DNA from: a bacterium
GTDB taxonomy: Bacteria; Patescibacteriota; Patescibacteriia; Patescibacteriales; GWC2-42-12
Length of the DNA: 64,000 bases
NCBI GenBank assembly: GCA_030650415.1
Contig: JAUSEG010000005.1
Span: forward strand, 23,333-87,332
Reading direction: 5' to 3'
The translations under genes and the position numbers were made by a program. The notes beneath the pieces are model-generated. The model saw nothing but the letters and a program-made list of their open reading frames with translations. It was not told where the DNA came from and ran no database searches. Shown piece after piece: positions 6,384-56,077 of the stretch; the stretch's first letter is position 1, and every line of letters begins with the position of its first letter.

Positions 6384-6434
6384 TTACCCCGTTAAATCCG
6401 GCGAAGCCGGAGCAAAGCTATTTAACGGGGTGAA
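6384..6434. repeat. Type-2 hairpin element (TTCACCCCGTTAAAT...ATTTAACGGGGTAAA) in the 5' leader
   Basis: On the minus strand the 3' arm ends 11 nt before the ATG at 6372. Same termini as 10244-10290, 12717-12916 and 55111-55159. Confidence 0.75.
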
Positions 6435-10228: not shown

Positions 10229-10243
10229 AGATAAATTTTGTTT

Positions 10244-10290
10244 ACCCTGTGAAATCCCTACGGGATGCGTAGCATATTTCACAGGGTGAA
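10244..10290. repeat. Type-2 hairpin element in the leader of the surface-protein gene
   Basis: ACCCTGTGAAAT-CCCTACGGGATGCGTAGCAT-ATTTCACAGGGTGAA. It ends 15 nt upstream of the ATG at 10228. Confidence 0.75.
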
Positions 10291-10728
10291 TCCGGTTAAA
10301 TAATAAAATTATTTAACCTGGATGCTTGACTCGTTTTTTAAATTAAGATCTTGGCAAATCAACCGGAATCCCGCTCCCCCGCGAAAAAAATACGATTTTT
10401 CTGGCTTCGCCAGATCTGGCATAGCCAGACAATTTACGATTTTCGAATTTAGAATTTTAATTCGTAATTCGAAATTCATAATTCGTAATTCCTTCTGGGG
10501 GTTAGCTTGCTGATTTACCTCGTGGCTCGCGACGATCAATCGCGGAGCCGTATCCCGGGACTAGCCCGGGACTAGAAATTTAAAAAACAAGTTGATTAAT
10601 TAGATTGGCAAAGTCTCCATCGAAATGGATCGACCATTTATAACTTTACCGTAACCCGCTTAATGCGGATTAGAGAATTTCTCTCAATTAAGAGATAAAC
10701 TATCTAATCAACACTAATTGTTTAGTAT

Positions 10729-10876: not shown

Positions 10877-11860
10877 TTACTGTGTACTGCTCGCCGTCTC
10901 GCTCGCGCCTTCAACCTGACCGACTTCAGTCTGATTAATAACTTTGTTTATTTCTCCAAGCTTATCTATGGCACCGTTAAGATTTTTTTCATCCACTAGC
11001 TTTTCCGCTTCGTCAAGCATCTGACCGGCCTGCTGTGAGCCTGCCGAACCAGCCGAATTAGCGTTTTCCGCCGTAGAAGTGGCGGTGGCCTGCTGTGAGC
11101 CTGCCGAATCAGCCGCAATTTGGTTTTCTAAAATTGGCTTAGAGGTGCTAGCCACCGGCTCAACTATTGGCGTTGGTTTAATTTGCCCGTCTGCCTGTCC
11201 GGCCTGCCTGCCGGTAGGCAAGGTAGACCCGCCGACTGGCGTGGCCGATTCGGATATTTCCAGCCTTTGATTATTCTTACCTAAATTAGCGCCAAAAACT
11301 TCTGATTCGGCTTCTTTTGACTTGGCCTGATCGGCGGCAGCCTTAATGACGGACAATCGATTTTTTACTTGGCTGATTTCTTTTTTAAAATTCTGCGATA
11401 GTTTTTCCAGCTTGTCATTATTAACTGTAGCGGTTTGACCCTTATCTTCTAAAACCTGAATCATTTCCTTAGCGCGATTAGTGGCAAACTCAACGCCTAG
11501 TTTGGCCTTATCTTTTTCATCAAAGGTCATAGCGAACTGCGCCCGCTCGCTGATAATTTTCGCGATATATAATGAATCGCCGGGTTTAGTATTTTTTGAG
11601 GCGTAAACGCCGCCGATGCCAACCACTAAAATTAAAACACTGGCTATAGAGGCTAGCCAAACCGGTTTAGCGAAGCTCATTAAAATTTGGCGCGGCATAA
11701 TACTCTCCCAAACTATTCTAATATCCGACTTCGGTTCGAGCTCCGGCTGACCGGCGGAAATTTGGCTAAACAAAATATCCCGATATTCTTTCTGCCAATC
11801 ATTATCGGGTTTAATGCTTTTTAAATTATTTAATTTTTTGAGAAGTTCTTGATCAGTCAT
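10877..11860 (-). CDS. Putative anti-sigma/membrane-anchored partner of the ECF sigma factor (DUF5667-like)
   Basis: Lies directly downstream of the sigma gene. Has a single TM segment (VWLASIASVLILVVGIGGVYA) followed by a helical PGDSLYIAKIISERAQF... region. The C-terminal low-complexity part includes repeat-derived LPTGRQAGQ and a 31-bp internal duplication. Confidence 0.45.
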   Translation of the reverse strand: MTDQELLKKLNNLKSIKPDNDWQKEYRDILFSQISAGQPELEPKSDIRIVWESIMPRQILMSFAKPVWLASIASVLILVVGIGGVYASKNTKPGDSLYIAKIISERAQFAMTFDEKDKAKLGVEFATNRAKEMIQVLEDKGQTATVNNDKLEKLSQNFKKEISQVKNRLSVIKAAADQAKSKEAESEVFGANLGKNNQRLEISESATPVGGSTLPTGRQAGQADGQIKPTPIVEPVASTSKPILENQIAADSAGSQQATATSTAENANSAGSAGSQQAGQMLDEAEKLVDEKNLNGAIDKLGEINKVINQTEVGQVEGASETASSTQ

Positions 11861-12096: not shown

Positions 12097-12678
12097 TCAA
12101 GTATTTAAATTTATTTTTTCATCTTGGCTTAAAAGTCCTTTTAGGGCGTTCAAAGACCGATAAATTAAAATTCTAACATTGCCTCTTGATTTGTCTAAAA
12201 CCTCGGCGATTTCTTTAATGGAAAGTTCGTTGATAAAACGCAAAATTATTATTTCGCGATATTCGTCTTTCAACTCCGGTAATTTAGATTCTAAAACCAA
12301 GAGATCGGCTTTAAATTCCATGTCATAATGCGGACTCTGCTTTTCGTCGGCGACTTTAATTCCGTTTTCATCATCCAGACTAACGGTTTCTCGGCCCTTG
12401 GTTTTTCGGTAATGATCAATAATCAAATTTCTGGAAATTTTATAGAGCAGGGCCTTCAGCGTTTTATAATCCTTCAAATTATCTTTCAAAATATAATGCC
12501 AGGTCTTTAGAAACACGGCTGAACATAAATCCTCCGCCTCCTCGCGATTGCCTACCTTGAAATAAATAAATCGATACAGTTGATCAACATATAAATCATA
12601 AGCTCTAACAAAGGCATTTTTATCATTTTGCTTTATCTTATGCAGCAATAGTTTTTCTTCAATCTTGCCTATCTTCAT
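12097..12678 (-). CDS. RNA polymerase sigma factor, ECF/sigma-70 family
   Basis: Region 2 (YDLYVDQLYRFIYFKV..EAEDL..VFLK.W) and a region 4 HTH (EYREIIILRFINELSIKEIAEVLDKSRGNVRILIYRSLNALK). Confidence 0.85.
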   Translation of the reverse strand: MKIGKIEEKLLLHKIKQNDKNAFVRAYDLYVDQLYRFIYFKVGNREEAEDLCSAVFLKTWHYILKDNLKDYKTLKALLYKISRNLIIDHYRKTKGRETVSLDDENGIKVADEKQSPHYDMEFKADLLVLESKLPELKDEYREIIILRFINELSIKEIAEVLDKSRGNVRILIYRSLNALKGLLSQDEKINLNT

Positions 12679-12716
12679 TTAATTATACGTAAAAATTAGA
12701 GTATTGTTACAGTTTA

Positions 12717-12916
12717 CCCCGTGAAATAGCTTCGCACCCCGTTAAAACGGGGATTTCATGGGGTGAACCCCGTGAAATTGCTTCGCACCCCGTTAAAACG
12801 GGGATTTCATGGGGTGAACCCCGTGAAATTACTTCGCACCCCGTTAAAACGGGGATTTCATGGGGTGAACCCCGTGAAATTACTTCGCACCCCGTTAAAA
12901 CGGGGATTTCACGGGG
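12717..12916. repeat. Tandem array of four 51-bp type-2 hairpin units
   Basis: Units start at 12717, 12768, 12819 and 12870. Each unit is CCCCGTGAAATnnCTTCGCACCCCGTTAAAACGGGGATTTCA(T/C)GGGG(TGAA). There are no spacers. The array lies about 38 nt upstream of the sigma-factor ATG. Confidence 0.9.
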
Positions 12917-13062
12917 CAAATAAAAAAATAATCGTAGTAAACGAAAATAATTTGCTAAAATAAGCTATTTTTTTCTCATGCGGGATTCCGTCCAGCTGGA
13001 GAATAAATATATTGATTATAATAACATATAGATAAGCGAAAAGCAATAAAAACTCTCACAAT

Positions 13063-13186: not shown

Positions 13187-13237
13187 TGTGGGTGTCTTGC
13201 ATTATTAAAAATAATGTGCAAAAATGTAGGTAACTTA

Positions 13238-13389
13238 CTTTAGTCTAGGTTGGCGTGGACTTAAATCATTATTTAAATAATAATACTTTAGTCTACAGTA
13301 GCGTGGACTTAAAGTTAACTACTCATAAACCCTAGCACCTTTTAAAAGGTGTCTGGGTAAACTTAAGTCTACAGTAGCGTAGACTTAAC
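13238..13389 (+). promoter_or_regulatory. Three ~27-bp direct repeats, each an internal palindrome (candidate operators or iterons)
   Basis: 13238-13265 CTTTAGTCTAGGTTGGCGTGGACTTAAA; 13287-13313 (TAGTCTACAGTAGCGTGGACTTA); 13362-13389 CTTAAGTCTACAGTAGCGTAGACTTAAC (perfect 8-bp arms AAGTCTAC/GTAGACTT). The last repeat ends 8 nt before the ATG at 13397. Confidence 0.55.
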
Positions 13390-13396
13390 TCCTAAA

Positions 13397-13705
13397 ATGA
13401 CACAAGATCAACTTAACCTAATAAACGACAATAAAATAAAAGCAGATGATACTGCTGATCAGGTTTTAAATAATGAAATTATTAAACCAATTTGGATTTC
13501 CGTTTCCGAGGGCGCCAAACTTGGCGGAGTGCAAACTAAAACTATTCGCCGCGCTATTCAATATAATTATGTTAAATACAAAATAGTTAGCAATCGTTAT
13601 TTAATTGACTTCCCTACTTTGATCACCTATTTGCACACTAAAACCAAGCTCAAAAATAAATTAAACCAATTCGGCCTAGGCCAATATGTGGATAAGTGGA
13701 AATAA
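13397..13705 (+). CDS. Small helix-turn-helix DNA-binding protein (excisionase/MerR-like HTH)
   Basis: 102 aa. WISVSEGAKLGGVQTKTIRRAIQ has the pattern of excisionase-type HTH domains. Confidence 0.5.
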   Translation: MTQDQLNLINDNKIKADDTADQVLNNEIIKPIWISVSEGAKLGGVQTKTIRRAIQYNYVKYKIVSNRYLIDFPTLITYLHTKTKLKNKLNQFGLGQYVDKWK

Positions 13706-15050: not shown

Positions 15051-16523
15051 ATGAAAAAAATTCTAGTGATAACTGTCTTGGCTTTATTCTTGGCTACTCT
15101 GTCGGTTCTGGCGGTGACAGACTCGGATTTCACGGCTGACGATAATGTTGCCGTCACCTTGAATCTTAACGGCGTTGCCGGTGCCACCGAAGCTACTTTA
15201 ATGATTAAAAGCGGCTCTGAAGCGCGCAGTTTGGTAATTAACAGCATCGGCACTCTTGATATAGTTAACGCCAGTAGTACCTCTTTTAAGCTCTATTCAA
15301 CCGATACTAACGCCGGAGCCATTAAAGTCGCGAGTTCCACTACGCTGGTTAGCTGTACCGACTTCGCGGATGCTACTTTAAGCAGTCCGGTTACCATCGC
15401 CTCAAGCACCATGTACATTTCCACTTCCACTATTACTCTGATTGACCTGGATAATGCCCTGACCTATAATGATTCTTGCGGCGCGGCTTCATGCGATGTT
15501 GGTTATAGTCCATCAGGATCAAACGCAGACGCGACTTGCGTTCGCAATACTGGCGGTTCTAACCCGCCCAGCGGAGGAAGTCCTAGTCCAGTTACTTGCA
15601 CATCCGTAGTTTATGATATCTGGCAGACCGCCTGCACCAGCGGCTGGCAATACCGCAACGTTACATCGCAAAGCCCATCCGGCTGTACTTTAACCACCGC
15701 CCAAGAGAATGACAAAAAGAAGTCATGTACTGCTGCTGCTTGCACCTCCGTAGTTTATACTGACTGGCAAACCGCCTGCACCAGCGGCTGGAGATACCGC
15801 ACCGTTACATCGCAAAGTCCGTCCGGCTGTGCCTTAACTACCGCCCAAGAGAATGACAAGAAAAAAGCCTGCGTCTCCCCCGCCACTCCGGCGACTCCGG
15901 CAACGCCTGCTACGCCAGCTCAAGCCGCCGACCAGATAAAGAATATCGTCGCTGAAGCCGCGACGATCGCCGGACGCAGTGTTGAATCGGTCTTAGCTGC
16001 TGTCGGCGCGATGCAAGACGCCAAAGCCGAAGCCGCGGCCGAAAAAAAATATACTAATAGTTTAGTCAGCGGTTTAAAAAACATCACAGCCGAAATTAAA
16101 TCAGCCATCACCAACTTCATAAATTACGGCACCCCGACCACCCTAAAATTAGGCGCGGGCGAAAGAGCCGGCGTAATTAGTTCTTATAGAGCCGCTTTCG
16201 GCAAAGTGCCGGCTACCGAAACTGAATGGTCTGATGCGATTAAAATCGCTAATGGCCGCTGGCCAACCGCCAGAAGCGCCGCCGCCGAAGCTCAAGCTAA
16301 AGTTGAATTTAAGAAAGTTTACAAGCGAACACCGAATATGAATCAAACTAATGACAACGCCGCGGTTACCGTAATTTCTTATGGCTTAAGGCCGGGCAAC
16401 AGAAATCTGAATAGCGAAAAAGCCGCCATTAAAAGCTTTAAAGCGATTTATGGCCACGCGCCAGTGTCAGCAATAGCCTGGGATATCGTACGCGCTATCG
16501 CCTACTCAGGAGCAACCAGATAA
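15051..16523 (+). CDS. Secreted protein with two tandem Cys-rich 44-aa repeats, a PATP linker and a conserved C-terminal domain of unknown function
   Basis: Signal peptide MKKILVITVLALFLATLSVLA. Repeats CTSVVY..WQTACTSGW.YR.VTSQSPSGC.LTTAQENDKKK.C occur twice (about 15598-15870). (PAT)4 linker. Confidence 0.6.
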   Translation: MKKILVITVLALFLATLSVLAVTDSDFTADDNVAVTLNLNGVAGATEATLMIKSGSEARSLVINSIGTLDIVNASSTSFKLYSTDTNAGAIKVASSTTLVSCTDFADATLSSPVTIASSTMYISTSTITLIDLDNALTYNDSCGAASCDVGYSPSGSNADATCVRNTGGSNPPSGGSPSPVTCTSVVYDIWQTACTSGWQYRNVTSQSPSGCTLTTAQENDKKKSCTAAACTSVVYTDWQTACTSGWRYRTVTSQSPSGCALTTAQENDKKKACVSPATPATPATPATPAQAADQIKNIVAEAATIAGRSVESVLAAVGAMQDAKAEAAAEKKYTNSLVSGLKNITAEIKSAITNFINYGTPTTLKLGAGERAGVISSYRAAFGKVPATETEWSDAIKIANGRWPTARSAAAEAQAKVEFKKVYKRTPNMNQTNDNAAVTVISYGLRPGNRNLNSEKAAIKSFKAIYGHAPVSAIAWDIVRAIAYSGATR

Positions 16524-17269: not shown

Positions 17270-17340
17270 CACGGGATGTAGGAATCGAACCTACGCTAGA
17301 GGATTTGGAGGCCTCTGTACTACCATTATACTAATCCCGC
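17270..17340 (-). tRNA. tRNA-Trp (CCA)
   Basis: Hand-folded 71-nt cloverleaf: GCGGGAT/ATCCCGT acceptor, anticodon loop CTCCAAA, T arm GTAGG-TTCGATT-CCTAC, discriminator G. There is one C-U mismatch at 31:39. CCA is not encoded. Confidence 0.85.
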
Positions 17341-17350
17341 ATGCGCAACT

Positions 17351-17456
17351 GGCCGTCGGAGGAATGTTGGTTTTGAGCGCATACGAAATTGTAGTATTTT
17401 TTAAAGAAAATGCCCAAATTTCGTCTAAGCGAAAAACCAACATTCCTCCGACGGCC
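17351..17456. repeat. Long hairpin element with conserved core (family also at 24681-24828)
   Basis: Perfect 24-bp arms GGCCGTCGGAGGAATGTTGGTTTT / AAAACCAACATTCCTCCGACGGCC. The inner core, GAGCGCATACGAAATTGT...AATGCCCAAATTTCGTCTAAGCG, is shared with the second copy. Confidence 0.8.
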
Positions 17457-17495
17457 AAACTACCCTAATCAATATTTTTAAGCGCGTAAACACTT

Positions 17496-29024: not shown

Positions 29025-29795
29025 TTAATTAAAACTATACTTAAAAAACTTATCAATAATTTCCCCCGCCTCCTGGCCTAATTTTTTACTTATTTTAATT
29101 TTTTGTAACTGTTGAAAATTACATTTAACGGCTAGTCTCAGTAATTTGATGCTATCATCGGTTATAACTAATTGATTAGCATCTTTAGGATTAAAGCACT
29201 TCGAGCAGACCAGGCCGCCTCTCGCCAAATCAAACCGATTTCTTCCCGGCAAAATTTTATTAACGCAACTAACGCAAACTGACAACTCCGGCTGATGACC
29301 TAATAGGGCTAAAAGCTTAAAGATAAATAATTGAGTCAGCATCGTCAAGCGGTAATCGCTATATAATTCTTTCTGGATTCCCCCCGCATTTTGCGGGGCG
29401 GGAATGACAGACTCCGGCCGCTCCAGCGTTTCTAAATAATTTTTCAATAATTCAAATATTTTTTCATCGGCCAGTCCGGGTTTAATAAGCTGATCTATGA
29501 TTTTTACCGCTCGTCCGGCTGGCGCTAATTTAGTCAAATCATTTTTTATATTGCTAAAACAATTTTCGTTTAAAGCCGCGCCCACATAATCATGCCGCCG
29601 GCCGCGCACCGCCATAATATTAGTTAAGCTCAAAGGCTCTAAATGGCCGGCCAGCTTTGATTTTATCTTCTTCGCTCCCCTGGCGGTTAATTCGAGTTTA
29701 CCAAACTCGCGCGAATAAACTACGACCCGGCTATCACATTCGGAAAAACTTTTACGGTTTAAAATTATGGTTTTAATATTATAAGTATCTTCCAT
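29025..29795 (-). CDS. recO: DNA repair protein RecO (with repeat-derived insertion)
   Basis: N-terminal OB-fold pattern and zinc motif CVSC...CSKC. A half palindromic element at 29373-29409 is translated as SVIPAPQNAGGIQ. Confidence 0.75.
   Translation of the reverse strand: MEDTYNIKTIILNRKSFSECDSRVVVYSREFGKLELTARGAKKIKSKLAGHLEPLSLTNIMAVRGRRHDYVGAALNENCFSNIKNDLTKLAPAGRAVKIIDQLIKPGLADEKIFELLKNYLETLERPESVIPAPQNAGGIQKELYSDYRLTMLTQLFIFKLLALLGHQPELSVCVSCVNKILPGRNRFDLARGGLVCSKCFNPKDANQLVITDDSIKLLRLAVKCNFQQLQKIKISKKLGQEAGEIIDKFFKYSFN
29373..29409. repeat. Half type-1 element inside recO
   Basis: CTGGATTCCCCCCGCATTTTGCGGGGCGGGAATGACA, which is the right-hand terminus module of the family. Confidence 0.7.
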
Positions 29796-29805
29796 AAAAT
29801 CCTTT

Positions 29806-29893
29806 TGTCATTCCCGAAGCCGTAGGCTGTCGGGAATCCAGGGGCGCGCGGCATAAACATATTTTCTGGATTCCCGCCTGCGCGGGAATGACA
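29806..29893. repeat. Type-1 mosaic palindromic element
   Basis: TGTCATTCCCGAAGCC...GGGAATCCAGG...CTGGATTCCCGCCTGCGCGGGAATGACA. Confidence 0.85.
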
Positions 29894-29951
29894 AGAAAAA
29901 ATATTGCATCGCTCCCGAAAACTCTCAAAATTACCCGTAATGACAATGCAG

Positions 29952-36756: not shown

Positions 36757-37188
36757 TTAAAACTTCAAACCGCCAAGCCTGGCGCCTTCAGCCAAAGCCT
36801 TAACTCGGCCATGATATTTATAACCGTTGCGGTCAAACACCACTCGGCTAATACCCTTAGCTACGGCTTTCTCGGCAATCAATTTACCTAATTCCAAGCT
36901 AATAGCGGTTTTCTTACCTATCTGTCCGGTAGGCAGGCCTTTAGCTTTTACCCCGTTAAATTCCCGATTACTATCGGGACCGGCGGAGCCGGATTTAACG
37001 GGGTGAGCTTCGCCGGCGCCCACGCTAACTAAGGTCCTGCCAATTTCATCATTTATAATTTGGGCATAAATGCCGCGATTGGATCTGAAAACGGTTAGTC
37101 TTGGGCAAACGGCTGTGCCGCTGACCTTGGCTCTGACTCTGCCCTTGCGCCTAAATCTTTTAGCTTGTTTAATTTTATTTATATCCAT
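36757..37188 (-). CDS. rplR: 50S ribosomal protein L18 with repeat-derived internal insertion
   Basis: [17 protein letters not shown] and [26 protein letters not shown]. About 22 extra residues (..[28 protein letters not shown]..) are encoded by the repeat modules. Confidence 0.9.
36922..37006. repeat. CTGTCCGGTAGGCAGG module plus a type-2 hairpin element inside rplR
   Basis: TACCCCGTTAAAT-TCCCGATTACTATCGGGACCGGCGGAGCCGG-ATTTAACGGGGTGA, with the same termini as the leader elements at 6384 and 12717. Confidence 0.8.
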
Positions 37189-44525: not shown

Positions 44526-45275
44526 TTATTTATACCTTTCTTCTAGCTTCTCAACAACGGTTCTTGCAATAATTAAATTCTTATATTTCAACAGGTCTAC
44601 TATATTTATATTATTCATGTTAATCAGCAAAACGCCAGGTAAGTTTTTTGCCGAATTGGTTAATTTCTCATCAGTCTTTTCGACGATAATCAAGATACTG
44701 CGTTTTTTCGCTGATTTACCGGTTTTAGTTTTCTTTGGCTTGGCTTCAACTTGTCCGGTTAAATTCATGGCCTGCTTAACTTCAGCTGAACCGGAATTCA
44801 ATGGAGTAAAAATTTTATTTTCTAAATTAGCTAAAATCTGATTAAAAAATTTGGTTTTAAATTCCGTTATGGAAAATTTATCTAAAACGACTAAATGATC
44901 GCTGGCCAGTTTATCGGATAAAACCATAAGCATGGCGCCCTGCTTCATCTTTTTATTTATCCGCATTTTAAAATTCCGGTCGTTTCTCGGACCGAAGGTT
45001 ACGCCGCCACCCTTCCAAATCGGTGATCGGCTTGAACCGTGGCGCGCTCGGCCCGTGCCTTTTTGCGCCCAAGGTTTTTTACCGCCGCCCCTGACTTCGC
45101 TTCTGGTCTTAGTATGAGCGATAACTTTTCTCTCGTTGGCCATTTGCGTAACAACCGCCTGGTGCACTAGAGCTTCATTAACTTTCACGCCAAAAACCTT
45201 TGAAGAAAGTTCCATCTCTCCGGCAGCTTCCGCGTCTTGGTTGTAGATTTTTATTTTAAGGCTCATATTTTGCAT
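44526..45275 (-). CDS. rplD: 50S ribosomal protein L4
   Basis: GGGKKPWAQKGTGRARHGSSRSPIWKGGGVTFGP. The first track ATG (45281) lies in the repeat terminus, so the start is set to the next ATG. The exact start is uncertain. Confidence 0.88.
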   Translation of the reverse strand: MQNMSLKIKIYNQDAEAAGEMELSSKVFGVKVNEALVHQAVVTQMANERKVIAHTKTRSEVRGGGKKPWAQKGTGRARHGSSRSPIWKGGGVTFGPRNDRNFKMRINKKMKQGAMLMVLSDKLASDHLVVLDKFSITEFKTKFFNQILANLENKIFTPLNSGSAEVKQAMNLTGQVEAKPKKTKTGKSAKKRSILIIVEKTDEKLTNSAKNLPGVLLINMNNINIVDLLKYKNLIIARTVVEKLEERYK

Positions 45276-45392
45276 TGTCATTCCCGCGAAAGCGGGAATC
45301 CAGGAGGAAGCAGTATAAACATTGTTAATAATTTACCGTGTTTGTGCCTCTGCCTCCTGGATTCCCGACAGCCTGCGGCTTCGGGAATGACA
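45276..45392. repeat. Type-1 mosaic palindromic element (downstream flank of the inserted ORF)
   Basis: TGTCATTCCCGCGAAAGCGGGAATCCAGGAGGAAGCAGTATAAAC...TTTGTGCCTCTGCCTCCTGGATTCCCG...CGGGAATGACA. Confidence 0.85.
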
Positions 45393-45435
45393 AGATAAAA
45401 AATTGTTCGTTTTAATATTACTAATCACTAATCTT

Positions 45436-46850: not shown

Positions 46851-46875
46851 ATCTAATAAATTATTCTCTTTTTAC

Positions 46876-46955
46876 TGTCATTCCCGCGCAGGCGGGAATC
46901 CAAAAACGGATTTTTTACTTCTCACTCCTGGATTCCCGCCTTCGCGGGAATGACA
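46876..46955. repeat. Type-1 mosaic palindromic element
   Basis: TGTCATTCCCGCGCAGGCGGGAATCCA...CTGGATTCCCGCCTTCGCGGGAATGACA, in the 356-nt rpsJ-rplC spacer. Confidence 0.85.
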
Positions 46956-47206
46956 AGAGAAAAATATTTAATGGTTATTCAAAGCTCTAAATATAAAAAA
47001 ACCGGTCTTCAACAAACCAGTCCAAAACCGCTTTAACACGGTGGCTATTACAAATTATTTTCCAAAAAAGGAATTTAATTTTGACTCTTGGTTTGATTGA
47101 ATTTTACCTCGCTCTAAATATTAACTTTTATTCAAACACTTTCCCTAAAGGAGTTGTCTAAACAATCATTAATATAATATATAAAAATACTAACTAATAT
47201 ATTCTA

Positions 47207-50477: not shown

Positions 50478-50664
50478 TGTCATTGCGAGGAATCCTATTT
50501 CATTTTGTCATCCCCGCGCAGGCGGGGATCCAGGTTAAAAACGAAAAAATTTCGGTTTACTGAAATAATGGCAAAACAAAATGTCCGTGTCGCTGAACTC
50601 TGGATTCCGGCTCGCCTTCGGCTTAAAGGCCGGAATGACAAAAAGACGGTCGCTCGCAATGACA
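50478..50664. repeat. Nested type-1 elements (one copy inside another)
   Basis: Outer TGTCATTGCGAGG...GTCGCTCGCAATGACA. Inner TGTCATCCCCGCGCAGGCGGGGATCCAGG...CTGGATTCCGGC...GGCCGGAATGACA. Confidence 0.85.
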
Positions 50665-50699: not shown

Positions 50700-52787
50700 T
50701 TACTTCTTCCCCTCGTTTTTTTCCCCAATAATCTCTTCGGCGACATTTCTCGGTACTTCGGAATAATAAGCGAATTCCATGCTATAGCTGGCTCGGCCCT
50801 GGGTCATTGATCTTAGCTGAGTGGCGTAACCGAACATTTCTGATAGCGGAACTTTAGCTTTTATAAATTTAACCATGGCCCGGTCGCCCATTTCTTCAAT
50901 CTGCGCCCGCTTAGAATTCAAATCTCCGATAACCTCGCCCATAAAATCCTCCGGGGTTACGGCTTCAACTTTCATAATCGGCTCGAGAATTATCGGCGCG
51001 GCATGACGGCAAGCTTCCTGGAAAGCTATGGAACCGGCAATTTTAAAGGCCGCTTCGGACGAATCGACATCATGATAAGATCCGTCTAAAACCGCCACTT
51101 TAATATCGACAATCGGATAACCGGCTAAAACGCCTCTGTCCAGAGCTTCTTTAACGCCCTTTTCCACAGCCGGAATAAATTCGCGGGGGATTGATCCGCC
51201 CTTAACTTCATCAAGGAATTCAAAACCCTTGCCCTGCTCATTCGGTTCAACTCTAAGCCAGCAATGGCCGTATTGTCCATGGCCGCCCGATTGCTTAATA
51301 TATTTTCCTTCGGCTTCGGCGGATTTTTTAATGGTTTCGCGATAAGCGACTTGCGGTTTACCGACGTTAGCTTCAACTTTAAATTCCCGTTTCATGCGGT
51401 CAACGATAATGTCCAAATGAAGCTCGCCCATGCCCTTAATAATCGTCTGCATGGTTTCTTCATCACTGACCACTCTAAAAGTTGGATCTTCTTCTGATAA
51501 TTTTGATAAGGCCATGCCCATTCTTTCTTGATCGCCCTTGGTTTTCGGTTCAATGGCGATAGAAATAACCGGCTCAGGGAAAGTAATTGATTCTAGAACT
51601 AACGGCCGGCTTTCATCGCATAAAGTATTACCCGTAGTAGTGGCTTTTAAGCCGATTACGGCCGCAATTTCACCGGCATAAACTTCCTGAACTTCTTCTC
51701 TGTGATTCGCATGTAATCTAACAATGCGGCCGATTCTTTCCCGGTTGCCGGTAGAAGTATTTAAAAGATAAGAGCCGGATTTTAAAACTCCGCTATAGAC
51801 TCTGATAAAACAAAGCTTGCCGACGTAGGGATCGGTCGCAATCTTAAAAGCCAGAGCCGCGAACGGCTCGGTATCGGACGGCTTAACCACAATGAGCCTT
51901 TCTTTATCGTCCGGATCAAAACCGGTAATGGCCGGCACTTCGAGGGGCGAAGGCAAGTATTCAATAACCGCGTCTAAGAGCAGCTGCACGCCTTTATTTT
52001 TTAAAGCGCTGCCGCAAAGCACCGGCACAATTTTATTATTTACCACCGCTTGACGCAGGACTCTTTTTAAATCGGCGACGGCGATTTCTTCGCCGGCCAA
52101 ATATTTATTCATTAAAACTTCGTCATTTTCGGCAATCGCCTCAACTAGCTTAGAGCGATACTCTTCAACTTTAGCTTTCATGTCCGCCGGCACTTCCCTA
52201 TCCTCCCACTTAGTACCCAGCTCGTCTAAAAAAAAGCGCGCTTTTCTTTCAAATAAATCTATCATGCCTTGGAACTTATCTTCGGCGCCGATCGGCAGCT
52301 GAACCGGGTGGGCATGCTTAGTCAATCTTTTATGGATTGAGGCTAAATCTTTATAAAAATCCGCGCCGGTGCGATCCATTTTATTAATGAAAGCAATGCG
52401 CGGCACTTTATATTTATCAGCCTGATGCCAAACGGTTTCCGATTGCGGCTCGACTCCGGCCACGCCGTCGAATAACACTACGCCGCCGTCTAAAACACGC
52501 AAAGATCTTTCCACTTCAGCGGTAAAATCCACGTGCCCGGGGGTATCGATTAAATTGATGCGGCAATCTTTCCAAAAACAAGTGGTAGCCGCGCTCGTTA
52601 TAGTTATACCGCGTTCCTGCTCCTGCTCCATCCAATCCATTTCCGCCGTGCCTTCATGCACTTCGCCGATCTTATGCTTTTTTCCGGTATAAAAAAGAAT
52701 CCGCTCGCTGACCGTGGTTTTACCCGCGTCAATATGAGCGATAATGCCGATGTTGCGTGTTTTTTCTAAACTATATTCTCTAGGCAT
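50700..52787 (-). CDS. fusA: Elongation factor G
   Basis: [17 protein letters not shown] and NKMDR motifs. 695 aa. Confidence 0.97.
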
Positions 52788-52798
52788 AATTTAATATT

Positions 52799-52862
52799 TG
52801 TCATTCCCGCGCAGGCGGGAATCCATTTCCTCTGTCATTGCGGCCTCCGAGCCGCAATCCAG
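52799..52862. repeat. Two left-hand type-1 termini in tandem
   Basis: TGTCATTCCCGCGCAGGCGGGAATCCA followed by TGTCATTGCGGCCTCCGAGCCGCAATCCAG. Confidence 0.75.
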
Positions 52863-53958: not shown

Positions 53959-53972
53959 ACCTACTTCTCCCC

Positions 53973-54000
53973 CTGGATTCCCGCCTGCGCGGGAATGACA
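53973..54000. repeat. Right-hand half of a type-1 element
   Basis: CTGGATTCCCGCCTGCGCGGGAATGACA. Confidence 0.75.
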
Positions 54001-54009
54001 AAAGGTGTA

Positions 54010-54477
54010 TTATCTCGCGAAATGCGCGAAGGCTTTATTGGCTTCGGCCATGCGGTGAACTTCGGCGCGTTTTTTAACGGCCGCGCCCTCGCCTTTCGAA
54101 GCATCAATTATTTCATCAGCCAATTTCTCCGCCATGGGTTTTCCCCGCTTTGCTCTGACCGCGGTAATCAGCCAGCGACAGCCTAAAGTAAAACGGCGTT
54201 CACCTCTGACCTGAAAAGGAATCTGATAGTTAGCGCCGCCGACGCGTCGGCCGCGAATTTCCAATAAGGGACTCACCTGCTTTAAAGCTTTGTTAAAAAC
54301 ATGCCTCGGATCCTGCTTAGTTCTTTCTTTAATAATTTCAAAGCAAGTGTAGACGATTTTCTGCGCTACGGTTTTTTTGCCTCGCTCCATGATGTAATTA
54401 ATAAACTTAGCGATATCCGGATCGTTAAATTTTACATCAAACTGAATTTTTCTCTTGGTGACTGGTTTGCCTCTCAT
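54010..54477 (-). CDS. rpsG: 30S ribosomal protein S7
   Basis: RRVGGANYQIPFQVRGERR, AHFAR C-terminus and synteny. Confidence 0.93.
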   Translation of the reverse strand: MRGKPVTKRKIQFDVKFNDPDIAKFINYIMERGKKTVAQKIVYTCFEIIKERTKQDPRHVFNKALKQVSPLLEIRGRRVGGANYQIPFQVRGERRFTLGCRWLITAVRAKRGKPMAEKLADEIIDASKGEGAAVKKRAEVHRMAEANKAFAHFAR

Positions 54478-55110: not shown

Positions 55111-55159
55111 TACCCTGTGAAATCCGGCTCTGCCGGTGCATAGCAATTTCACGGGGTGA
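55111..55159. repeat. Type-2 hairpin element in the rpsL leader
   Basis: ACCCTGTGAAAT-CCGGCTCTGCCGGTGCATAGCA-ATTTCACGGGGTGAA. It ends 52 nt upstream of the rpsL ATG. Confidence 0.75.
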
Positions 55160-55856: not shown

Positions 55857-55997
55857 TGTCATTGCGAGCGACTGTCTTTTTTTGTCATTCCGGCATCCGC
55901 CAGCTGGCGGAGAGCCTGCCTGCTGGCAGGCGAAGCCGGAATCCATGATTGTGTACTCTGGCCAAATTTCTGGATCCCCGCCTTCGCGGGGATGACA
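55857..55997. repeat. Nested type-1 elements
   Basis: TGTCATTGCGAGCG, then TGTCATTCCGGCATCCGCCAGCTGGCGG...CTGCCTGCTGGCAGG...GCCGGAATCCA...CTGGATCCCCGCCTTCGCGGGGATGACA. Confidence 0.85.
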
Positions 55998-56077
55998 ATC
56001 AAATAAATTCTACCACGCCTTGCCTTTTATTTCAAAAGCTGATAATATAAATCGCATAATAATAAAATAAAATATAT

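Follow-up and report, generated by a model that had tools for sequence, protein, structure and literature searches.

Directly upstream of an ECF sigma factor gene stand four nearly identical 51-bp units, each able to fold into a hairpin, and their position raises the question of whether they form a regulatory device of that gene or merely came to rest beside it. The first-pass annotation of this stretch of DNA (64,000 nucleotides, here called the window) had suggested either an expression rheostat set by the number of copies or a pile-up of a dispersed repeat, its type-2 element. Our analysis points to the second: the array is probably a small hairpin element of the REP/RPE kind that piled up beside the sigma promoter in one lineage, selfish or neutral DNA and not a conserved regulatory device.

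The array and its fold

Tandem Repeats Finder reported a period of 51 with 3.9 copies, 98% matches and no indels at 12716–12916, and a pattern of the 47-nt unit matched at 12717, 12768, 12819 and 12870 with 2, 1, 0 and 1 mismatches, respectively, where shuffled sequences are expected to give no match. Both searches reproduced the four tandem units noticed in the first pass. The units are arranged head to tail, each with a 47-nt core and a 4-nt tail that together make 51 nt, and the plus strand reads TTTA-core-TGAA-core-TGAA-core-TGAA-core-CAAA (Table 1). With the tail counted, adjacent units differ at one, one and three positions. Most of the variation falls, as had been reported, into a 3-nt box that reads AGC, TGC, TAC and TAC in units 1–4, to which we add a T→C substitution in the 3′ arm of the last unit. 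An array inside the L18 gene of another locus (L181) has the same layout, its final unit likewise followed by CAAA.

Table 1. Coordinates of the array, the sigma factor locus and the other repeats of the window
Feature	Position	Strand	Remarks
TTTA flank beside unit 1	12713–12716	+	Commonest tetranucleotide preceding family members; putative insertion target, from flank statistics and filled/empty pairs
Unit 1	12717–12767	+	47-nt core and TGAA tail, box AGC
Unit 2	12768–12818	+	Core and TGAA, box TGC; sole unit with a fully paired mini-hairpin, TGC-TTC-GCA
Unit 3	12819–12869	+	Core and TGAA, box TAC
Unit 4	12870–12920	+	Perfect outer stem (3′ arm CAC, not CAT); tail CAAA, not TGAA
ECF sigma factor gene	12097–12678	-	Pfam Sigma70_r2, r4_2 and ECF matches; orthologues 83–88% identical
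DUF5667 protein gene	10877–11860	-	3′ of sigma; likely anti-sigma partner; marks conserved synteny
Promoter-like conserved block	12682–12711	-	Between array and ATG; TGTAAC-N16-CGTA (ECF-type) or GTAACA-17-TATAAT (sigma-70 type)
Single family member	6387–6430	.	44-nt core, flanks TTTA...TGAA, intergenic
Single family member	10245–10286	.	14 nt upstream of the ATG of a large surface-protein gene
Degenerate relative	10291–10321		Past a 4-nt TGAA linker from the copy at 10245–10286
Family member in ribosomal protein L18 gene	36951–37003	-	53-nt core, in frame in the gene (36757–37188); 19-aa insert
Single family member	55113–55156	.	44-nt core, TTTA...TGAA, intergenic
Second palindromic family	29794–29904, 45265–45400, 46854–46977, 50496–50534, 52786–52825, 53968–54013, 55970–56005, others

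A single unit was predicted to fold into an 11-bp outer stem (CCCCGUGAAAU/AUUUCAUGGGG; 14 bp with the flanks) around the hairpin CCCCGU-UAAA-ACGGGG, with a folding energy of −27.9 kcal/mol (z = −5.4), in agreement with the stem and inner hairpin first drawn from the letters. The opposite strand of the unit folds more weakly because a G–U pair turns into a C–A mismatch. The 9-nt "bulge" left over in this structure, (A/T)GCTTCGCA, represents a third mini-hairpin, paired in other members of the family described below but decayed in three of the four array units. Open reading frames cross the array on both strands (12707–12919, minus; 12763–12963, plus) because 51 nt equal 17 codons, and they had rightly been set aside as artefacts of the repeat. 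We found no intrinsic terminator at the array, a T-run being absent, and the exact array unit had no match in the JGI metagenomes; its subtype also occurs nowhere else in the window.

Three further assignments of the units were considered and rejected. A CRISPR array, which the first pass had discounted for want of spacers, does not fit units that are 4 nt apart, as compared with unique spacers of ~25–40 nt. An integron attC site needs RYYYAAC ... GTTRRRY at the base of the stem, and the GTTAAAT/ATTTAAC of the arms stand in the inverse order on either strand; the arm variant GTGAAAT, not fitting GTTRRRY, also contradicts it. An ECF-type promoter within each unit (TGAAAT-N18-CGAA) has poor spacing, and its motif is the family arm itself.

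The sigma factor locus and its relatives

The sigma factor gene is on the minus strand, so that upstream means higher coordinates, and the gap between its ATG and the first array unit is 38 nt, the distance originally estimated. This gap holds a promoter-like block that can be written as TGTAAC-N16-CGTATAATTAAATG or TGTAAC-N16-CGTATAATTAA, or in short as the CGTATAAT block. Its ECF-type motif, which resembles the known ECF promoter consensus, has a single occurrence in the window and is found elsewhere in the fetched DNA at sigma loci alone; a sigma-70 scan gave the block a score of 10/12. The block is identical at 16 of 16 orthologous sigma loci and directly adjoins the sigma ATG; a Shine–Dalgarno-like sequence is lacking. 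We infer the identity of the promoter from conservation and consensus alone: the conserved block suggests an autoregulated ECF-type promoter before sigma, and its meeting the ATG suggests a leaderless or near-leaderless mRNA. An obvious Shine–Dalgarno sequence is also absent from nearby genes (at 10231, 13397 and 14228).

The 16 loci, from three related species, have a common synteny consisting of a divergent 101-aa gene, sigma, DUF5667 and a ~1200-aa protein, and none of them carries a family element upstream of sigma. Both flanks of the array site could be aligned with these relatives (upstream block ...CGATTATTTTTTT; downstream block TGTAACAA-N-CGTATAATTAAATG), in which an A/T-rich spacer of ~25–45 nt takes the place of the array. 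As the relatives lack the element even though the flanks and the promoter block align, the array is a lineage-specific insertion. As the promoter block is downstream of the array, the array adjoins the −35 from the upstream side and is probably not in the leader, the second of the two places that the first pass had named.

This arrangement bears directly on the rheostat, under which the number of hairpins in the promoter or leader would tune sigma transcription or translation. The array does adjoin the −35 of the likely promoter, strains can have different numbers of units in arrays of this family, and gene-adjacent REP arrays have been proposed to modulate expression (PMC3733652). Against this, the array is missing from all 16 orthologous loci, at which the promoter block is kept, as are the divergent gene's operators; it lies upstream of the conserved −35/−10 and is probably not transcribed with sigma; the same element occurs at unrelated intergenic sites and inside coding genes; and most units are losing their mini-hairpin. 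We consider the rheostat unlikely. The array may nevertheless alter the strength of the sigma promoter, as a possible and incidental side effect.

In the window the divergent gene (13397–13705), which encodes 102 aa and has no Pfam matches, is preceded by three palindromic sites TTWAGTCYAC-N6-GTRGACTWAA (13236–13265, 13284–13313 and 13360–13389), whose number and position are kept in the three related species and which probably are operators of the small DNA-binding-like protein that the gene encodes. These sites matter for another reading, in which the array would be made up of operators or iterons bound by a protein, either a regulator of sigma or the helix-turn-helix protein nearby. The junctions between array units, ATTTCAYGGGG-TGAA-CCCCGTGAAAT, are 11-4-11 inverted repeats, and the conservation of the arm sequence across phyla suggests recognition by a protein; however, the divergent gene has palindromes of its own that orthologues retain while the array is not retained, and single copies of the element are scattered at unrelated loci and within genes. 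We thus regard such binding sites as very unlikely.

We favor instead an insertion followed by accumulation. In the window lineage only, the element would have inserted at the conserved ECF sigma promoter, close to the upstream side of its −35, and local multiplication would then have given the four head-to-tail copies. The sole effect on sigma would be incidental: A/T-rich DNA abutting the −35 would have been replaced by G+C-rich, cruciform-prone DNA, and the conserved upstream block would have been pushed ~170–190 bp further from the promoter. For the sigma gene itself the consequence is little, the array most likely being a selfish-DNA accident by its promoter. A second site in this gene neighbourhood gives a similar picture, as the large surface-protein gene has an element 14 nt upstream in the window, a similar one 200 nt upstream in one relative and none in two others, a difference in presence that indicates element turnover.

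A dispersed palindromic family

The arms and architecture of the array units are those of single copies dispersed in the window, which bears out the pile-up reading. The members of this family are palindromes with the arms CCCCGTKAAAT/ATTTMACGGGG around one or two covarying hairpins, forming a three-helix junction with a core of about 30–63 nt. Besides the array, the window has four clear copies and one degenerate copy, and there are five family sites in the 64 kb. In the single copies, the position of the array's "bulge" is paired, as AGC-TTT-GCT, as TGC-TAT-GCA or as a 7-bp stem, and the second hairpin differs in sequence yet is self-complementary.

Among 14 members of the same length, 97.7% of the cells were paired in comparison with ~35–47% in slid controls, and 8 of 19 pairs changed on both sides. 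The covariation score was 0.40 versus 0.09 in shuffles, none of the 500 shuffles reaching 0.40. G–U intermediates were almost absent, a pattern more readily expected of a DNA palindrome that can pair on either strand than of a structure formed by RNA alone. The strong fold, with z about −5 per unit, and the covarying helices could also be expected of a tandem cis-regulatory RNA in the sigma 5′ UTR, such as riboswitch-like aptamers or an attenuator. The scarcity of G–U intermediates speaks against such an RNA, as do the occurrence of members in both orientations and within ORFs and the lack of conservation of the element at the orthologous locus. Searches with Rfam 15 of the window and 18 element-bearing loci gave only tRNAs at the gathering threshold, and at E ≤ 10 the array region had chance-level matches, the best with 21 bits in comparison with a gathering score of 100. 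Taken with these results, a cis-regulatory RNA is extremely improbable.

Repeat-encoded peptides gave only spurious low-complexity matches to Pfam and NCBIfam. A full-text literature search with the arm sequences returned only unrelated primers, and a search of the literature on CPR together with MITE, REP or palindromic elements found nothing specific to the family.

We scanned species-representative genomes with the pattern CCCCGTKAAATN{8,38}ATTTMAYGGGG and found the family arms at at least 118 genome loci. Among the matches listed, the MAGs are labelled Parcubacteria, Moranbacteria, Falkowbacteria, Saccharibacteria, Gracilibacteria, Bacteroidales, Rikenellaceae and Cloacimonadota, with further labels including Verrucomicrobiota, Omnitrophota, Desulfobacterota, Bipolaricaulota, Chlorobium and others. 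Several genomes each contain many near-identical copies of an element, and members are found in both orientations. The family had no matches in the IMG/VR, phage and plasmid collections and nothing thus points to a viral or plasmid vector. Some of the taxonomic labels of matching genomes are probably wrong. A MAG labelled "uncultured Gammaproteobacteria" carries a sigma/DUF5667 locus of the Falkowbacteria type together with family elements (L137 and other binchicken MAGs; L033, L129, CAZLKB01).

Family members also lie in frame within genes confirmed by Pfam: rpL18 in the window and, elsewhere, genes for EF-G, AspRS, PolA, YchF, glycosyltransferases and a Wzy/TPR protein, the YchF insertion being at the same site in two Moranbacteria. 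Their predicted translation reads xPVKS...FNGV for elements with GTTAAAT arms and PREI/PHEI...ISRG for those with GTGAAAT arms, the latter being the frame used by the minus-strand ORF through the sigma array. In comparison with solved L18 structures, the L18 protein of the window carries ~25 additional residues between positions 58 and 66. At one site, its orthologues contain no unit, one unit, two units or a nested one, with lengths of 117 aa when empty, 136 aa with one unit and 153–157 aa with two tandem units. Within long open frames, core length was 2 mod 3 in 23 of 25 elements, a count that is partly circular as frame-preserving insertions alone were scored; the count tells us only that core + 4 is the added length.

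Two coding sequences of the window contain smaller palindromes of another kind. The L18 gene has a separate 7-aa insert, LPTGQIG, from a small palindrome (CTGCCTACCGGACAG) unrelated to the family, and the DUF5667 coding sequence has a palindromic repeat of the same kind, CTGCCTGCCGGC (11191–11214), encoding ...LPTGRQAGQ....

Insertion, stacking and known elements

Two pairs of filled and empty alleles record the insertion. In the first, the empty L177 reads GAA/GTAAAG and the filled L178 GAA-ATTCA-core53-TAAAG, a gain of 57 nt or core + 4, and the TAAA/TTTA beside the insertion is already present in the empty allele. In the second, L183 reads GAAA-TTCA-core2 and L180 GAAA-TTTA-core1(56)-TGAA-core2, a gain of 60 nt or again core + 4; here the insertion is 3′ of TTCA/TTTA, and this TTYA is the complement of the resident element's own tail. 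On the appropriate strand, both pairs show core + TGAA inserted directly 3′ of TTYA and no duplication of the target, a rule that is based on two events, both at one L18 site, and on the statistics of the flanks.

For these statistics we used 138 nonredundant single elements. The commonest flank pair was the asymmetric TTTA...TGAA with its reverse complement (33 elements), the two symmetric pairs accounting for 6, and the left flank equalled the right one in 16 of 138. As the flanks are not direct repeats, we rejected a 4-bp target duplication. The outer tetranucleotides seen were TTTA, TTCA, CTTG, CTCG and CCTG, and G+C-rich lineages have other flanks, CTCG...CGAG. The orientation of the flanks was uncoupled from that of the inner hairpin (16 versus 17).

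A resident copy keeps TTYA beside its hairpin on both strands, so that new copies come to lie exactly 4 nt away and arrays stack. Fresh copies landing 3′ of this TTYA would explain the growth of the sigma array. Elsewhere, genomes and metagenomes repeatedly show clusters of two to four units with linkers of exactly 4 nt, in line with the pile-up that the first pass had thought possible. Four of the clusters (L007, L102, L158 and L162) join clearly unrelated units, for which slippage alone is insufficient. In the sigma array, the one-step differences between adjacent units and the absence of the subtype elsewhere in the window and in the JGI metagenomes indicate local serial copying. This copying could be re-insertion from a neighbor or unequal exchange, and slippage or unequal crossing-over could equally be the source of the four near-identical units.

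The number of units differs at another array of the family. At a Verrucomicrobiia locus with near-identical flanks, the orthologous array has four units in a MAG and two in a metagenome contig, with assembly collapse possible, and across assemblies it has two, at least three and four. One may ask whether the four copies before sigma come from short-read metagenome assembly, the true locus having one unit or some other number. The source is a contig of the MAG type, and the variable counts of the Verrucomicrobiia array, perhaps partly due to repeat collapse, show how this could happen; the ordered, unit-specific substitutions, however, anchor reads and are unexpected from a collapsed or inflated repeat. 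An artefact of this kind seems to us highly improbable, and we take the four-unit pile-up as real.

Among known systems, the family is like REP, REPIN and BIME sequences in consisting of short G+C-rich palindromes, present in many copies per genome, mostly intergenic, often in tandem and occasionally intragenic, and thought to be nonautonomous mobile DNA handled as hairpins. The REP superfamilies of enterobacteria and Pseudomonas have a GTAG/CGTC tetranucleotide tag, and intragenic and tandem REPs, as well as RPEs, are documented (PMC3733652). Unlike REPs, the family has no GTAG or CGTC tag but the flanks TTTA...TGAA, and it differs further in its longer cores, three-helix junction, the same 11-nt arm across many phyla and neighbors that are always 4 nt apart; no RAYT gene flanked by a family element was found in the window and ~180 loci. 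When E. coli RayT was compared by phmmer with every ORF in this set, one Y1_Tnp gene was identified, whose flanks have no family element. This gene, in a Bipolaricaulota MAG (L081, 6154–7029), encodes a 292-aa IS200-like Y1_Tnp of the RAYT/TIRYT type and is flanked by inverted GGGGTCAGACCTTCA/GGGGTCAG repeats, unrelated to the family of the sigma array, that match the GGGGWSAS TIR motif of PMC3733652.

The Rickettsia palindromic elements (RPEs) resemble the family as selfish palindromes inserted in frame into protein-coding genes, housekeeping genes among them, where they encode extra peptide loops and vary in presence between relatives. RPE-1 is about 100–150 bp long and confined to Rickettsia. 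By description, the family is set apart from RPEs in being shorter (42–63 nt), in a presumably unrelated sequence, in occurring in Patescibacteria and many other phyla and in forming tandems even inside genes. IS200/IS605 elements and the REP/RAYT system have in common insertion 3′ of a tetranucleotide without duplication, ends marked by hairpins and exact empty alleles. The family shares these features with IS200/IS605 and with PATEs, insertion being immediately 3′ of the tetranucleotide. IS200/IS605 elements, however, encode TnpA and have one hairpin at the left end and a separate one at the right, whereas the family element is one compound palindrome, to which our search linked no TnpA; the likeness is in mechanism, and we claim no membership. 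Classical MITEs such as Correia and Nezha are similarly small, noncoding sequences with terminal inverted repeats, that occur close to promoters and can change how neighboring genes are expressed, but the family is much shorter, lacks a target-site duplication in two filled/empty pairs and has flanks that are not direct repeats.

Set beside these systems, the family looks like a variant of REP/RPE-type elements that is widely spread, apparently undescribed and marked by an unusually clear insertion signature. Its mobilization may involve single-stranded DNA and an HUH enzyme of the IS200/IS605 or RAYT type that acts in trans. More tentatively, and with somewhat greater doubt than belief, we suggest a new superfamily of very small hairpin transposable elements, with CCCCGTKAAAT arms, a three-helix junction, a 4-nt tail and insertion 3′ of TTYA without duplication, spread in Patescibacteria, Bacteroidota, Cloacimonadota, Verrucomicrobiota, Omnitrophota, Desulfobacterota and other uncultivated lineages, in frame in essential genes (rpL18, EF-G), stacked at 4 nt and moved in trans by a possibly HUH-type enzyme. 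The interest of the family lies in the near-identical arms of so compact an element across deeply separated, mostly uncultivated phyla and in its being tolerated within ribosomal protein and translation factor genes of the tiny Patescibacteria genomes. The insertion signature could lead to the mobilizing enzyme, the family would account for many odd short "hypothetical" ORFs and peptide inserts in MAG annotations, and its presence or absence and copy number could serve as a strain-level marker.

The window contains repeats of other kinds as well. A second and more abundant palindromic family, TTGTCATTCCCGCG-N-CGCGGGAATCCAG with variants such as TGTCATTGCGAGG...CCTCGCAATGACA, is scattered over the window and often occurs as inverted pairs. 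A coding tandem repeat of 144 nt (1.9 copies, 87% matches) lies at 15595–15867 in ORF 15051–16523, the product of which has 490 aa, looks secreted and has no Pfam matches. Finally, a tRNA gene (17270–17340) is adjoined by an inverted repeat of 51 nt (17350–17457), 82% complementary across a spacer of 6 nt.
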